Assembly: GCA_000146045.2 (NCBI GenBank)
Contig: BK006937.2
Coordinates: 96,001 to 160,000, forward strand
DNA length: 64,000 bases
Origin: TPA_inf: Saccharomyces
Lineage: Eukaryota
Direction of reading: 5' to 3'
Part shown: in pieces, positions 15,916-22,348 of the stretch
Layout of the letters: every line of letters starts with the position of its first letter
Position numbering within the stretch: position 1 is the first letter of the stretch
Made by a program: the position numbers and the translations under genes
The notes under the pieces: generated by a model
Told to the model about the DNA's origin: nothing
Databases searched by the model: none
The model's input: only the letters and a program-made list of their open reading frames with translations

Positions 15916-16482
15916 ATGGATTACGATAGCTCTGATACAATGAACGGTGGTTCAAGTAACCCCTTAATCACTAAGATGAATACAATGAAATTATTATATC
16001 AACACTATTTGGATAAAGTCACTCCTCACGCTAAGGAGAGGTGGGCTGTATTGGGTGGTTTGTTATGTTTGTTTATGGTTCGTATTACAATGGCCGAAGG
16101 CTGGTATGTGATTTGTTATGGTCTAGGTCTATTTTTATTGAATCAATTTTTAGCCTTTTTGACCCCAAAATTCGATATGTCCTTACAGCAAGATGAAGAA
16201 AACAACGAATTGGAAGCTGGAGAAAAATCAGAAGAATTCCGTCCATTCATCAGAAGATTACCAGAGTTCAAATTCTGGTATAACAGCATTAGAGCCACTG
16301 TCATTTCCCTCTTGTTGTCGCTATTTTCAATCTTCGATATTCCAGTATTTTGGCCCATCTTATTGATGTATTTCATATTATTGTTTTTTTTAACTATGAG
16401 AAGGCAGATTCAACATATGATAAAATATAGATATATACCCTTAGATATCGGTAAGAAGAAATATTCTCATTCTTCTAACTGA
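15916..16482 (+). CDS. RER1: Golgi-to-ER retrieval receptor Rer1, a four-TM membrane protein
   Basis: Starting at the internal Met of MDYDSSDTMNGGSSNPLITKMNTMKLLYQHYLDK gives the 188 aa I remember. Four hydrophobic segments are visible. The track ORF begins 14 codons upstream. Confidence 0.85.
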   Translation: MDYDSSDTMNGGSSNPLITKMNTMKLLYQHYLDKVTPHAKERWAVLGGLLCLFMVRITMAEGWYVICYGLGLFLLNQFLAFLTPKFDMSLQQDEENNELEAGEKSEEFRPFIRRLPEFKFWYNSIRATVISLLLSLFSIFDIPVFWPILLMYFILLFFLTMRRQIQHMIKYRYIPLDIGKKKYSHSSN

Positions 16483-17079
16483 TATACCCTGACTCCACAT
16501 ACCTATTCAACGAACACATTCGTATCTTAATTATATGTAAACAAAATTATATGATAGTTACAGAATAATTGTGATTATTTTCTCCTTCTACTCATCTTCT
16601 CTTATATTGGAAGAATACATGAAGTTATTGATTAAGCAAAATTGAAGGGAAGAGGCTCATTTTCTTCCATTTATAAATGGAGAGCTTGAGATGCCTCCAA
16701 TTGATAAATTTTTGTAAAGACTTTCAAGAAACATGTCTAAAAAGAATTGACAGCTTCGAACCTTTCTGCATAATTACTAATACCAAATTAGTGAGAAATG
16801 GGGTATGTCGAGGAATAAAGGATGCAAAAGAGAGAGTAATGTCATGCAAGTTGTGAGTTTGAAATGTTCACACGTTTATAATGTCCATACTCCGTGGCGT
16901 GCATGTGTTTTAGTGTATTAGTTTTCCAAGTTATTAAAGAACTTAGTAAATTTATCATCGAACGCATTTTGATTAAGTGGCACAATAGACTTCAATGGAA
17001 AATGAAAATCATATCTGTAGCAAAAACGACAGCGAAGATAACGGTTACACAATTATCACGTTGATTCGTCAACTTAAAG

Positions 17080-17541
17080 ATGACCTTTTTACAATTTATC
17101 AATAATAATAGACAAGAAGGACAAGGTTATATTTCAGAAAAATTATTCAAAACTAAGAAGAATGAGATGATAAGAAAAACAGTTACCAATTTAGTAGCTG
17201 TAAGATTAAAAAACTTATCCCACGAATTTGATGTAATAGAGAATTATCTGCGCTATATAGCTAGCACCAGTGAACATCTATTTACTGCTATTAAGCGCCA
17301 CTTTAACAAATGTGCCAGAAAACTTTTGAAAGAAGCAATCGACTCCAAATCAAACTCAGAAACTGCTACGGTGGTTCTGCAAGAAGGATTTTCTGGCATT
17401 TGCTTATTGAAAGCGTCTTCAATTATATTAAAACTAAAATTGAAGTTTCCAAAAAAGAAAGATAGAACTGATATTAGCAAATTGTGTGACAAGAAAGAAC
17501 GGATGACACAGTGGTTAGAAATTTCAATTTTGATGAACTGA
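17080..17541 (+). pseudogene. YCL001W-A: Dom34/Pelota-like fragment (N-terminal and central part), likely one half of a disrupted DOM34 paralog
   Basis: The 153-aa ORF resembles Pelota family proteins ([13 protein letters not shown], a KKK basic patch). It ends 186 bp before the next Pelota-like ORF, which lies in a different frame. Confidence 0.5.
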
Positions 17542-17769
17542 GAATAATAATATTATGCTCCCCTGGATTTTATGCGAAGACACTGCTGAAAAAATTTCTG
17601 ATATATGCAGAGAAGGAGCAAATAAGCCAGTTTTAAGGAACCGAGATAAGCTGTTTTCGCCCATTGTTCTAGTTCTACAAAATATCTACAGGGAATCGAT
17701 GAGGTTGTAAGAAATCCTGAATACTCTATGATAGTGCATAACACTAAAAAGTTGAAAGAATCCCGTATC

Positions 17770-18024
17770 ATGGACGATTTCCTTGAACATTTGAGCAAAG
17801 ACGATAACAAAGCATGGTATGGCGCGGAAGAAACCGAGAGAGCTGCAAAATTAGATGCAATAGAAACACTACTTATTACAGATAGTGTACTAAAAAGGAA
17901 CGACGTGAAAAAACGTGAAAAATACCTAGACCTAATAGAGAATAGTGGAAACAACAATGGCAAAATATTCGTACTCAGTACTTCAAAAATCACAGTGAGC
18001 AACTTGACAAACCAACAGATATAG
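17770..18024 (+). pseudogene. YCL001W-B: Dom34/Pelota C-terminal (eRF1 domain 3-like) fragment
   Basis: The 84-aa ORF from MDDFLEHLSKDDNKAWYGAEETERAAKLDAIETLLITDSVLK... resembles the C-terminal domain of Pelota/Dom34. It lies immediately downstream of YCL001W-A on the same strand. Confidence 0.5.
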
Positions 18025-18384
18025 GCTGTGTCTTAAAATATACCATCCAATACCTTGATGAACTTTTCAAAGATGACTAAAATAAGTGAAATTTCAACAT
18101 TAACTTCGAATTTTTTTCTTTTTATCTAACACTTGTCAAACAGAATATAAGGATTACTTGTCTTCTTTGCTACATATTGCTACCACTTCTATTACACAAT
18201 AGTTTCAATAGCTTGCAGCGTAGCTAAACTCTAAAATTTATCTAAATCACTCATATAAACCGAACCCTTCCCCTTCCGCTTATAGTACAGTACCTATACA
18301 TTTCATAAACATGGCATGGCGATCAGCGCCAAACAATATGGAAAATCCACAGAAAGCTATTCATTGAAAAAATAGTACAAATAA

Positions 18385-18501
18385 GTCACATGATGATATT
18401 TGATTTTATTATATTTTTAAAAAAAGTAAAAAATAAAAAGTAGTTTATTTTTAAAAAATAAAATTTAAAATATTAGTGTATTTGATTTCCGAAAGTTAAA
18501 A
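18385..18501. other. CEN3: Point centromere CEN3: CDEI GTCACATG at 18385..18392, CDEII 18393..18476 (84 bp, above 90% A+T), CDEIII TGTATTTGATTTCCGAAAGTTAAAA at 18477..18501
   Basis: The sequence has an exact CDEI consensus RTCACRTG, an 84-bp AT-rich spacer of the canonical length, and a CDEIII with the invariant central CCG (18489..18491) flanked by TGT...TTCCGAAA...AAAA. Together these match the CEN3 sequence. Confidence 0.95.
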
Positions 18502-21379: not shown

Positions 21380-22348
21380 TCAACGTTGAATGGCGTTGCT
21401 AGACATATGAGCTGAGGAACGACTATTCGCATTTTCTTTCAAGGCAATTAATTGTCTTGCTCTGAACCCTTCATAATGAATGTAGGAAGTTGTTTCGATT
21501 AAGTCTTGGAGATGAGTTCGAATCAAAAATTCCCTTAAATATACAAAATCACACTGGTTGATATCCTCAACATTAATAGCGCTCCAACGAGTTTTTCTTC
21601 CCCTGAAGGTTTCACCGTTTATTTCAATCTCATTCTCAGAACCAACCACTGCAAACGGAATGATAGATCTAACACTTCTGTTTAGTTCTAATTCCTCGTC
21701 AGTTAGTTCTTCCGAATCATAAGGATAAATCTTGAAATTGTATTTTTCGAATTCATTTTGAATAAGCTCCCTAAACTCCGTTCTTTCATCTAAAGTCAAT
21801 GTATCCGACTTGCCAATAACTGGTATAACATTTGCTATTTCTGTCAATCTTTTCAAGGCTTCAACGTCAAGGCGGCTCAACTCCTTTCCATTTGGTTGCA
21901 GGAAATAAAGAATTGCATGAACTCTTGTATCAGTAATAAACCTTTCACGTTGGGCTGTCAATTCTTTACGTAAGTATTGAGAATGTTGTTCCTTAATGTA
22001 CTTCACAATAGGCTCCCAAGCTTTAGAATTGTCAATAAAGTCACCAAATCCAGGTGTATCTATAACATTAATATTCAAGCGAACGCGGTCCTCCACAAGA
22101 GTATGAGTAGAAATTTTCATTTCAGTTGTTTTTGTAACAGGCAGGGCAGAAATATCATCACCAGTAGCAGAATCAATCAAATGTGAGGCAAATAACGTAT
22201 TTATTAGAGTACTTTTACCCAATCCGGATTGGCCAACAACCATTATATTAAATTGAAAACCTTTCTTCAACAGACGATGTTCGATCTGATTCGTGATGGT
22301 ATCAAAACCAACATAAGAAGCAGGCTGTACTGAGCTGAGAGGATCCAT
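21380..22348 (-). CDS. CDC10: Septin with a GTP-binding domain
   Basis: The 322 aa length matches memory. The P-loop GQSGLGKST, the G3 motif DTPGFGD and the G4 motif GKSD are visible. The position is immediately right of CEN3. Confidence 0.9.
   Translation of the reverse strand: MDPLSSVQPASYVGFDTITNQIEHRLLKKGFQFNIMVVGQSGLGKSTLINTLFASHLIDSATGDDISALPVTKTTEMKISTHTLVEDRVRLNINVIDTPGFGDFIDNSKAWEPIVKYIKEQHSQYLRKELTAQRERFITDTRVHAILYFLQPNGKELSRLDVEALKRLTEIANVIPVIGKSDTLTLDERTEFRELIQNEFEKYNFKIYPYDSEELTDEELELNRSVRSIIPFAVVGSENEIEINGETFRGRKTRWSAINVEDINQCDFVYLREFLIRTHLQDLIETTSYIHYEGFRARQLIALKENANSRSSAHMSSNAIQR

Follow-up and report, generated by a model that had tools for sequence, protein, structure and literature searches.

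The window analysed here is a stretch of 64,000 nucleotides of Saccharomyces cerevisiae DNA, and the region of interest lies on chromosome III between RER1 and the centromere CEN3. RER1 (15916..16482, forward strand; Pfam Rer1, E-value 1e-75) is a syntenic neighbour on the upstream side in all of the loci examined. It is followed on the same strand by two short open reading frames that are annotated in SGD as YCL001W-A and YCL001W-B. YCL001W-A (17080..17541) is an ATG-initiated frame of 153 residues. YCL001W-B runs stop to stop from an ATG at 17728 to 18024 (98 residues) and has been annotated from an internal ATG at 17770. A point centromere has been identified by pattern match at 18386..18493 (forward strand) and is made up of CDEI (TCACATG), an AT-rich CDEII and CDEIII (TGTATTTGATTTCCGAA); the pattern has a single match in the sequence and none in 100 shuffles. 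A citrate synthase gene, at the position of CIT2, is encoded further downstream on the reverse strand (24946..26328; Citrate_synt, 3.7e-96).

YCL001W-A shares significant similarity with S. cerevisiae Dom34 (PDB 2vgm_A) in a phmmer comparison (E-value 2e-20), with residues 17-62 corresponding to Dom34 41-86 and residues 59-142 to Dom34 104-191. The match takes in the last part of the N domain and the beginning of the central one. The frame ending at 18024 matches Dom34 273-355 (E-value 4e-20), and an eRF1_3 domain (PF03465) has been assigned to it at 68.8 bits (E-value 6.7e-19), well above the curated cut-off of 25.8 bits. A first-pass annotation had likened the first frame to the N-terminal and central regions of Pelota and the second to the C-terminal domain of eRF1, and both assignments hold. 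The central domain, eRF1_2 (PF03464), is split across three frames; its matches in the fragments score 13.9 and 22.5 bits, under the cut-off of 27.1 bits. It is recognised by direct alignment to Dom34 104-191 (E-value 1.9e-15) and is fully covered in the frame-corrected alignment to Dom34. The homologous coding remnant that had been expected between the two frames is also present, in other frames, as exemplified by a frame-3 ORF at 17511-17636 with similarity to eRF1_2 (E-value 1.5e-4).

For the comparison of Dom34 with the complete region we have used frame-aware dynamic programming and then aligned the DNA with that of the intact orthologue. A plain tblastn search with Dom34 matches the C-terminal tail to Dom34 360-381 (E-value 2.7e-4), but was set aside for mapping the lesions, its one-frame alignment having passed through stops and masked the frame changes. 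Once frame changes are allowed, the whole of Dom34 (1-386) aligns to 17002-18077 with an identity of 49%, in agreement with the earlier proposal of a single broken DOM34/Pelota paralog of which the two frames are collinear parts. The extent of 17080-18024 given for it earlier falls short of the full region, which covers 17002-18080. A word-indexed homolog search with the second frame alone retrieved only short ORFs of the S. cerevisiae type and missed Dom34; homologs were reached with a stitched, frame-corrected query and then with the S. paradoxus protein.

Intact copies of the gene are encoded in S. paradoxus (SPAR_C00590) and S. uvarum (SUVZ_03G0620), and, as described below, an introgressed allele is intact in five S. 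cerevisiae assemblies, as had been anticipated for other yeasts or strains. The order RER1, gene, CDEI/II/III centromere is observed in the window and in loci L003-L006 and L010-L015, and the CDEI-CDEII-CDEIII pattern is likewise found downstream of the intact gene in L003-L006. The proximity to the centromere remarked on earlier is therefore real, with the elements at 18386-18493 starting about 305 bp downstream of the relic. The allele of S. paradoxus CBS432 (L014:10001-11161) is an intact gene of 386 codons at the same site between RER1 and CEN3. The syntenic comparison that had been suggested aligns it with the relic from ATG to TAA, in which the initiation codon (ATG, 17002) and the termination codon (TAA, 18078-18080) have stayed in register with those of the intact gene. 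The MAFFT alignment of the two has a DNA identity of 81.3% over 1067 columns and contains 12 indels; insertions account for 4 of them (12 nt) and deletions for 8 (94 nt), and 9 of the 12 change the frame while 3 are in-frame. Alignment with the intact gene of locus L003 also extends from ATG to TAA and gives a similar lesion picture. The idea of a broken gene is thus upheld, but not that of a single frameshift or stop.

The frame-changing lesions have, in order, the sizes +2, +2, +2, -1, -5, -16, -1, -1 and -1. The first three are 2-nt insertions (AC at 17026, AT at 17102 and CA at 17135; 17026..17136) that carry the ancestral path from frame 1 through frames 3 and 2 back to frame 1, with peptides similar to Dom34 in frames 3 and 2. 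Two in-frame deletions of 30 nt and 39 nt (17256..17265), seen in the alignments to Dom34 as well as to DNA, remove 23 codons of the N-terminal domain that correspond to Dom34 residues of about 83-105. Deletions of 1 nt at 17434, 5 nt at 17448 and 16 nt at 17494 follow, the last of which ends the ancestral frame within YCL001W-A. The stretch of 17494..17666 is a remnant of the central domain, first in frame 3 and then in frame 2, delimited by the loss of single nucleotides at 17619 and 17650 and an insertion of 6 nt at 17666. A final 1-nt deletion at 17985 moves the last 32 or so ancestral codons, up to 18080, into frame 3 (EQLDKPTDIGCVLKYTIQYLDELFKDD*).

The annotated frames therefore do not coincide with what is left of the ancestral gene. 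YCL001W-A follows the ancestral frame only in about 17137-17433 and 17448-17493, and its first 19 and last 16 or so codons are out-of-frame translation. YCL001W-B follows it up to 17984 and has its last 13 codons out of frame. The first-pass annotation had placed a frame change between the two; a single-frame translation however displays both in the same reading frame, with 7 stops in between, because the homologous path leaves their frame and then re-enters it. The lesions between them (-16, -1, -1 and +6) amount to -12 nt. The gap of 186 bp that had been given is correct when measured to 17728; from 17770 it is 228 bp. No stop codon made by substitution occurs in the ancestral codon columns, all the stops being the product of frame changes; this absence is a point against a dead gene. 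YCL001W-A and YCL001W-B are the two longest stop-free stretches remaining in one of the three frames.

Neither a complete Sm-like N-terminal domain (Pelota_N / eRF1_1) nor a single ORF of about 380-400 codons is found in the relic. The former is spread over three frames and lacks the 23 deleted codons; eRF1_1 is recognised in the intact S. paradoxus protein at 74.5 bits. With nine frame-changing indels and a longest open piece of 153 codons, the region is therefore the remains of a member of the Pelota/Dom34 family and not a functional member. The collinearity of the pieces is all that speaks for continued synthesis of a full-length protein through readthrough or programmed ribosomal frameshifting. 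Such a product would have to bypass nine frame changes of varied size and sign and would still be without 23 codons of the N domain, and there is no conserved shift site, the coding sequence of the relatives being uninterrupted. A full-length product is effectively refuted, and is the least credible of the alternatives considered here.

The intact paralog is under purifying selection, with an omega of 0.08 between S. paradoxus and S. uvarum. The branch dN is 0.138 for S. cerevisiae vs 0.029 for S. paradoxus, and the approximate branch omega is about 0.47 (bootstrap 0.30-0.65) vs 0.10 (0.05-0.16), values that are rough as synonymous divergence from S. uvarum has reached saturation (dS about 1.6). 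The rise in omega on the S. cerevisiae branch extends to each of the three domains and to the interior of YCL001W-B. The lineage-specific changes at the three codon positions number 50/32/50 in S. cerevisiae, where they are near-uniform, vs 12/6/38 in S. paradoxus, which indicates relaxed constraint on the S. cerevisiae lineage. The nucleotide identity of the relic to S. paradoxus, 80%, lies between that of the RER1 coding region (92%) and intergenic DNA (77%). The S. cerevisiae-branch omega stays below 1, which we attribute to the averaging of a period of function with one of neutral evolution; weak constraint on YCL001W-B is also compatible with this value.

Upstream of the gene, comparison with S. 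paradoxus and S. uvarum has revealed a conserved block (16795..16830, forward strand) with two Aft-type motifs (GGGTGY, or RCACCC on the other strand). Both motifs are present in the two other species and each is broken in S. cerevisiae by a G-to-A change, at 16805 and 16822. The motif has been described as enriched in the DOM34b lineage and lost from S. cerevisiae (PMC6250833).

These observations bear on the suggestion that the two frames are genuine small genes, one or both of which have been retained as a truncated Pelota-like protein, for example the eRF1_3-like domain of 84-98 residues, with a putative role in binding Hbs1 or Rli1 or in modulating Dom34. The eRF1_3 score of YCL001W-B lies well above the Pfam cut-off and its S. 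cerevisiae-branch omega, 0.31, is the lowest among the regions; its branch dN is nevertheless about five times that of S. paradoxus (0.101 vs 0.019). Both are listed in SGD as uncharacterised ORFs, and YCL001W-B has been taken as a possible active paralog in several papers, while a recent preprint has proposed both as dubious (bioRxiv 10.1101/2023.09.07.545205). The terminal parts of the frames read the ancestral gene out of frame, both conserved Aft-type motifs carry mutations, and YCL001W-B differs between strains in length (98, 99 and 103 aa) and at many amino-acid positions. The genetic data fall on both sides. In a genetic-interaction screen, synthetic sickness with rrp46-DAmP and nop56-DAmP was reported for the YCL001W-A deletion (bioRxiv 10.1101/2020.10.04.325191), which could reflect residual function or a neighbour effect on RER1 or CEN3; 18S NRD is unaffected when either ORF is deleted, be it singly or in combination with dom34-delta (PMC5689013). 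In our estimate it is improbable that these are small genes in their own right, and equally so that a surviving fragment is still expressed and has been retained as a small protein modulating ribosome rescue or RNA surveillance. Such a role would be most plausible for the eRF1_3-like YCL001W-B, or else for YCL001W-A in view of the synthetic sickness, and the locus would then have preserved a functional mini-protein out of a dying ohnolog instead of being mere wreckage. The nine frame-changing indels, the relaxed constraint in all domains, the mutated promoter motifs and the out-of-frame ends argue that YCL001W-A and YCL001W-B are wreckage, and judged from the sequences most likely neither of them gives rise to a functional Pelota-like protein.

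Five S. cerevisiae assemblies encode an intact allele of 386 residues, an observation that could point to a strain-specific null allele or a sequencing error in the reference strain in place of a relic common to the species. Every intact allele that was retrieved is however 100% identical in nucleotide sequence to S. paradoxus CBS432 and is located inside a block that is 99-100% CBS432-like and only 65-92% S288C-like. On the basis of this sequence comparison the intact alleles are introgressions, and the S. paradoxus block of these assemblies takes in the centromere. The lesions of the window are all carried by the independent native alleles L001 and L002 (L002 in its 5' part). In a published survey of 94 strains and 1011 genomes, 86 of 93 strains are reported to carry the relic, and none of the native alleles to be intact (bioRxiv 10.1101/2023.09.07.545205). 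A defect confined to some strains or to the reference is accordingly given almost no credence.

Two further alleles, from the strains CFF and ASB (L008 and L009), have a protein identity of 80-86% to YCL001W-B. They were considered as intermediates that might date the order of the lesions, and were rejected for this purpose as the parental states of both species are mixed in them. They carry S. cerevisiae-derived as well as S. paradoxus-derived states, have only 3 and 2 private changes respectively over 875 sites, and switch between the parents 84 and 55 times in 1.1 kb. They are therefore most simply regarded as mosaics, that is, consensus chimeras of heterozygous loci in "collapsed" assemblies.

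The age of the duplication has been addressed by synteny and phylogeny. On chromosome 14 of S. mikatae (L007) a pelota gene on the forward strand is followed by a centromere gap and, just past it, by the citrate synthase counterpart on the reverse strand, an order that matches the window; the order pelota, centromere, citrate synthase has therefore been duplicated. The strict centromere pattern has no match to CEN14 in this S. mikatae locus. In a neighbour-joining tree the relic groups with SPAR_C00590, SUVZ_03G0620, NDAI_0G04380, KAFR_0I02320 and others in a DOM34b clade with a bootstrap support of 99%. Naumovozyma dairenensis, Kazachstania africana and Maudiozyma exigua each contribute one copy to either clade, their second copies falling with DOM34 proper, for which the support as a DOM34a clade is weak (56%). 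The single N. bracarensis sequence in the tree belongs to the DOM34b clade, and the species that diverged before the WGD fall outside both clades. As the chromosome III-type genes group with copies from other genera and not with Saccharomyces DOM34, the duplication must be older than these genera. We infer that it predates the radiation of Saccharomyces, Kazachstania, Naumovozyma and Nakaseomyces and corresponds to the whole-genome duplication (WGD), in agreement with the literature. DOM34a and DOM34b have been described as ohnologs, with YCL001w-a/-b "on its way to pseudogenization" (PMC6250833), and the pair has been assigned to the WGD (PMC6250833; SGD text quoted in PMC8101470; bioRxiv 10.1101/2023.09.07.545205).

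The term segmental duplicate used in the first-pass annotation consequently understates the age of the copy. A recent segmental duplication of DOM34 from chromosome XIV to III, now decaying, would give the same local picture, as the centromere regions of the two chromosomes share a duplicated block that a regional duplication could equally have produced. The relic is however only 48-49% identical in protein sequence to Dom34 as against 67-70% to the S. paradoxus chromosome III gene, and the Saccharomyces genes of the chromosome III type group, at the bootstrap value given above, with one of the two copies of Naumovozyma, Kazachstania and Maudiozyma. Along with the assignment to the WGD in the literature, this makes a recent duplication less probable still than the retention of small genes.

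We therefore regard 17002-18080 (forward strand), with a probability of roughly 0.94, as a dead, in-place relic (unitary pseudogene or "gene remnant") of DOM34b between RER1 and CEN3. DOM34b would represent the second WGD copy of the ribosome-rescue factor DOM34/Pelota. It presumably retained its function through most of its history after the duplication, and in S. paradoxus and S. uvarum it remains intact and subject to purifying selection. Its inactivation probably came later than the divergence from S. paradoxus, within the lineage of S. cerevisiae. Drift since then probably accounts for the 12 indels, the 23 lost codons of the N domain, a rate of amino-acid substitution raised about five-fold and the mutation of both Aft-type motifs.

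The relic is already known. The locus is annotated in SGD (YCL001W-A/-B), was discussed in 2018 as a decaying DOM34 ohnolog (PMC6250833) and has been described lesion by lesion in a preprint of 2023-2025 (bioRxiv 10.1101/2023.09.07.545205). REMYCL001W-A of this preprint is the same object, its start at 113002 being position 17002 of the window. Its published counts relative to CBS432 agree with ours: of 12 indels, 9 are out of frame, and the total is made up of 8 deletions (94 nt altogether) and 4 insertions (12 nt altogether). The assignment as a WGD paralog and the introgressed allele identical to CBS432 in some strains are in agreement as well. The two descriptions differ at the 3' end, which is placed at 113982 in the preprint, whereas we follow 32 more codons past the 17985 deletion to the shared TAA. 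They also differ in that the preprint names three in-frame stops.

DOM34 itself (YNL001W; 2vgm/2vgn/3izq/5m1j) comprises the Sm-like N domain, eRF1_2 and eRF1_3, is collinear with the relic over 1-386 and has a similar position with respect to a centromere and a citrate synthase gene. The relic is distinct from it in its low frame-corrected identity, in having no open gene, in the loss of about 23 N-domain codons and in belonging to the other ohnolog clade. CAGL0B04675g, the DOM34b of Candida (Nakaseomyces) glabrata, is of the ohnolog lineage of the relic (PMC6250833), with which the placement of the N. bracarensis sequence is consistent. This gene is intact and induced by iron starvation via Aft2 (PMC6250833), and the intact Saccharomyces orthologues of the relic also have Aft-type motifs upstream; in the relic the coding sequence is destroyed and these motifs are mutated. 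REMYCR099C (VTH4) and REMYKL162C-A (PIR6) are comparable in-place relics of WGD paralogs. They share multiple frameshifts, partial annotation as small ORFs, an intact S. paradoxus counterpart and, at times, restoration by introgression. The DOM34b relic is of a different gene family and, unlike them, adjoins a centromere.

As a discovery the finding carries little weight. Its practical value is a caution on treating YCL001W-A and YCL001W-B as possible active paralogs of DOM34. The locus is a clean, datable case of the late loss of a whole-genome-duplication copy, of which a functional version has come back in some strains through introgression from S. paradoxus.

The two adjacent open reading frames that the first-pass annotation had taken for a broken DOM34/Pelota paralog beside the centromere belong to a gene relic that is already known and published. 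That description was essentially right. The relic (17002-18080, plus strand) aligns with an intact syntenic gene and has CEN3 downstream. The first ORF (17080-17541) encodes 153 residues, and the second, ending at 18024, encodes 98 residues from the ATG at 17728 or 84 from the internal ATG at 17770; they are the annotated YCL001W-A and YCL001W-B respectively. YCL001W-A matches S. cerevisiae Dom34 (PDB 2vgm_A) with an E-value of 2e-20 in two collinear stretches (residues 17-62 with Dom34 41-86 and 59-142 with 104-191), and YCL001W-B matches Dom34 273-355 (E-value 4e-20), in keeping with the collinear, Pelota-like arrangement noted earlier. The assignment of YCL001W-B to the eRF1-like C-terminal domain is borne out by its Pfam eRF1_3 score of 68.8 bits against a cut-off of 25.8. 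More Pelota sequence lies between the ORFs in other frames, including a frame-3 ORF (17511-17636) that matches eRF1_2 (E-value 1.5e-4), and the intervening DNA thus carries a homologous coding remnant. The frame change proposed between the two ORFs is not found: single-frame translation places both in one frame with seven stops between them. The spacing of 186 bp holds for the start at 17728 and not for the start at 17770 to which it had been attached.

The region is the surroundings of CEN3 on chromosome III of Saccharomyces cerevisiae. RER1 (15916-16482; Pfam Rer1, 1e-75) precedes the relic, and a point centromere with CDEI (TCACATG), an AT-rich CDEII and CDEIII (TGTATTTGATTTCCGAA) follows at 18386-18493; the budding-yeast centromere pattern has one match in the window sequence and none in 100 shuffles. 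To the right of the centromere are a septin gene (21380-22348) and a citrate synthase gene on the minus strand (24946-26328). Chromosome III positions are obtained by adding 96000 to the window position, judged by where the relic is placed in the literature. The spacer from the relic stop codon to CDEI (18081-18385) is of 305 bp as against 190 bp in an S. paradoxus-type locus (L003, 6162-6351). The two spacers are nearly unalignable (53% over 175 columns), the centromere side having diverged far beyond the relic itself. Several deposited S. cerevisiae annotations also contain a "RER1" gene model of 293 residues (P0046) joining 15916-16368 to 17113-17538, that is, RER1 codons 1-151 spliced onto the YCL001W-A frame, which looks like an automated-annotation artefact caused by the relic.

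The breaks were located by alignment to Dom34 across frames, as had been suggested, with a purpose-written frame-aware alignment whose Dom34 query was checked against 2vgm_A. The entire Dom34 (1-386) aligns to 17002-18077 across a series of frame changes, with 49% identity. At the DNA level the relic and the gene of S. paradoxus strain CBS432 (L014, 10001-11161) share the ATG at 17002 through the TAA at 18078-18080, with 81.3% identity over 1067 columns and 12 indels, nine of them frame-changing. Relative to CBS432 the relic has four insertions totalling 12 nt (2 nt at each of 17026, 17102 and 17135, and 6 nt at 17666) and eight deletions totalling 94 nt (30 nt at 17256, 39 at 17265, 1 at 17434, 5 at 17448, 16 at 17494, and 1 at each of 17619, 17650 and 17985). 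A second S. paradoxus lineage (L003) used as reference gives the same picture. This independent count agrees exactly with that reported for REMYCL001W-A (chromosome III 113002-113982), in which eight deletions remove 94 bases, four insertions add 12 and nine of the 12 indels are out of frame; the authors proposed both ORFs to be dubious (bioRxiv 10.1101/2023.09.07.545205). The sole difference is the end point, our alignment running 98 nt beyond 113982 and ending at the common TAA; past the single nucleotide lost at 17985, this original stop and the ~32 ancestral codons before it still align clearly in another frame.

No stop in the ancestral codon columns of the relic was made by substitution, and all its stops are due to frame changes. 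What has been annotated is therefore the pair of longest open stretches in a single frame. At the ends of these ORFs the ancestral gene is translated out of frame: ~19 codons at the start and ~16 at the end of YCL001W-A, and 13 at the end of YCL001W-B. Programmed frameshifting yielding a full-length product is not tenable, as it would need nine shifts differing in size and sign. Further native S. cerevisiae alleles were retrieved, L001 and, over its 5' 900 nt, L002; these share all the lesions, which rules out an artefact of the reference strain.

The stitched translation of the relic used as query identified intact relatives of 386-390 residues at the same chromosomal position, namely an S. 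paradoxus cluster (P0054, SPAR_C00590) and S. uvarum SUVZ_03G0620, each flanked by RER1 and a CDEI-II-III centromere. The expectation that other yeasts or strains keep the gene intact at the syntenic locus is confirmed by these two species and by an introgressed allele in S. cerevisiae assemblies. Within Saccharomyces, the homolog searches gave intact DOM34b-type proteins in S. paradoxus and S. uvarum only; the chromosome-14 DOM34 was the sole copy seen in S. mikatae and S. arboricola, and no protein was identified in S. kudriavzevii. The gene has been described as split in most Saccharomyces species (PMC6250833). As S. paradoxus is the closest to S. cerevisiae, this pattern would need several independent losses.

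The intact paralog is constrained, with dN of 0.13, dS of about 1.6 (saturated) and omega of about 0.08 between S. paradoxus and S. uvarum. When S. uvarum serves as outgroup, 68 private amino-acid changes fall on the S. cerevisiae lineage and 16 on that of S. paradoxus, and nucleotide changes by codon position are 50/32/50 and 12/6/38 respectively. The branch dN is 0.138 for S. cerevisiae against 0.029 for S. paradoxus; with half of the pairwise dS assigned to each branch, the corresponding omega values are about 0.47 (bootstrap 0.30-0.65) and 0.10 (0.05-0.16). A value near 0.5 would be expected from a branch along which the gene was first functional and then neutral. At 80%, the DNA identity of the relic to S. 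paradoxus is intermediate between 92% for RER1 coding sequence and 77% for the intergenic DNA upstream.

The excess of dN extends over all three domains (N, M and C) and into both ORFs (for YCL001W-B, 0.101 against 0.019), which speaks against residual function of a surviving fragment, as do the out-of-frame ends of the ORFs, their differing lengths among strains and the absence of an 18S NRD phenotype on deleting either ORF, alone or with dom34-delta (PMC5689013). Such function is very improbable, even though the YCL001W-B domain is still recognisable and ycl001w-a-delta showed synthetic sickness with rrp46-DAmP and nop56-DAmP in a genetic-interaction screen (bioRxiv 10.1101/2020.10.04.325191).

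The locus had been regarded as a decaying segmental duplicate. It is duplicated and decaying, but the tree and synteny fit the whole-genome duplication and not a recent segmental copy, a conclusion partly based on literature. In a simple neighbour-joining distance tree of 32 Dom34-family proteins (380 columns, 200 bootstraps), the relic, SPAR_C00590, SUVZ_03G0620, NDAI_0G04380, KAFR_0I02320 and one copy each of Maudiozyma exigua and Nakaseomyces bracarensis form a clade at 99% bootstrap. Saccharomyces DOM34 and the second copies of N. dairenensis, K. africana and M. exigua form a weakly supported DOM34a clade (56%), and the pre-WGD genera fall outside both. Copies of several genera occur in each clade and the duplication is hence older than these genera. 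Gene order is alike at the two copies: a ~1-kb gap and then a citrate synthase gene on the minus strand come after the DOM34 orthologue of S. mikatae chromosome 14, and in the window CEN3 and, at a greater distance, a minus-strand citrate synthase gene come after the relic. According to the SGD text cited in PMC8101470, YCL001W-B is a paralog of DOM34 dating from the whole-genome duplication. The ohnologs DOM34a and DOM34b were defined in 2018, both being kept in S. uvarum, C. glabrata, N. castellii and K. africana, and YCL001w-a/-b was described there as heading for pseudogenization (PMC6250833).

Upstream of the relic is a well conserved promoter block of ~45 bp, whose S. paradoxus (L003, 4811 and 4830) and S. 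uvarum (L006, 4794 and 4812) versions each hold two motifs of Aft type (GGGTGY). The DOM34b lineage is enriched for Aft motifs, and DOM34b of C. glabrata is induced by Aft2 and iron starvation (PMC6250833), whereas in S. cerevisiae both motifs are mutated by a G-to-A change (16805 and 16822, in block 16795-16830), with no RCACCC site left in 16483-17001.

At least five assemblies deposited as S. cerevisiae (L010-L013 and L015) encode a protein identical to SPAR_C00590. Comparison of these loci (10001-11161 and flanks) with 5000-29000 of the window reveals that the gene is 100% identical to CBS432 in nucleotides in all five, and that the surrounding block is 99-100% CBS432-like and only 65-92% S288C-like. 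These intact alleles are introgressions and not surviving native alleles. A CBS432-identical introgressed allele has been reported in 7 of 93 strains and 66 of 1011 genomes (bioRxiv 10.1101/2023.09.07.545205).

Two "collapsed" assemblies, of strains CFF (L008, 2339-3500) and ASB (L009, 2263-3400), carry alleles in which S288C-type relic and CBS432-type gene alternate on a fine scale, with 84 and 55 parent switches in 1.1 kb, private sites at 3 and 2 of 875 positions, and flanks also of intermediate identity. The mosaic pattern and the near absence of private sites rule out evolutionary intermediates; these alleles are most likely consensus chimeras of a heterozygous relic/introgressed locus. 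A Logan contig (L002, 583-1662; ERR2021948) starts as S. cerevisiae-relic type for ~900 nt and, after a clean switch equivalent to ~17905, is of S. paradoxus type over its remaining ~170 nt and past the end of the gene; it is either a true recombinant at an introgression edge or a short-read assembly join.

The left breakpoints of the introgressed block vary among strains (kb 1-8 of the loci), and the block spans the whole centromere, extending on the right side to the citrate synthase gene or further. Since it includes CEN3, chromosome III of those five strains runs on an S. paradoxus-derived centromere.
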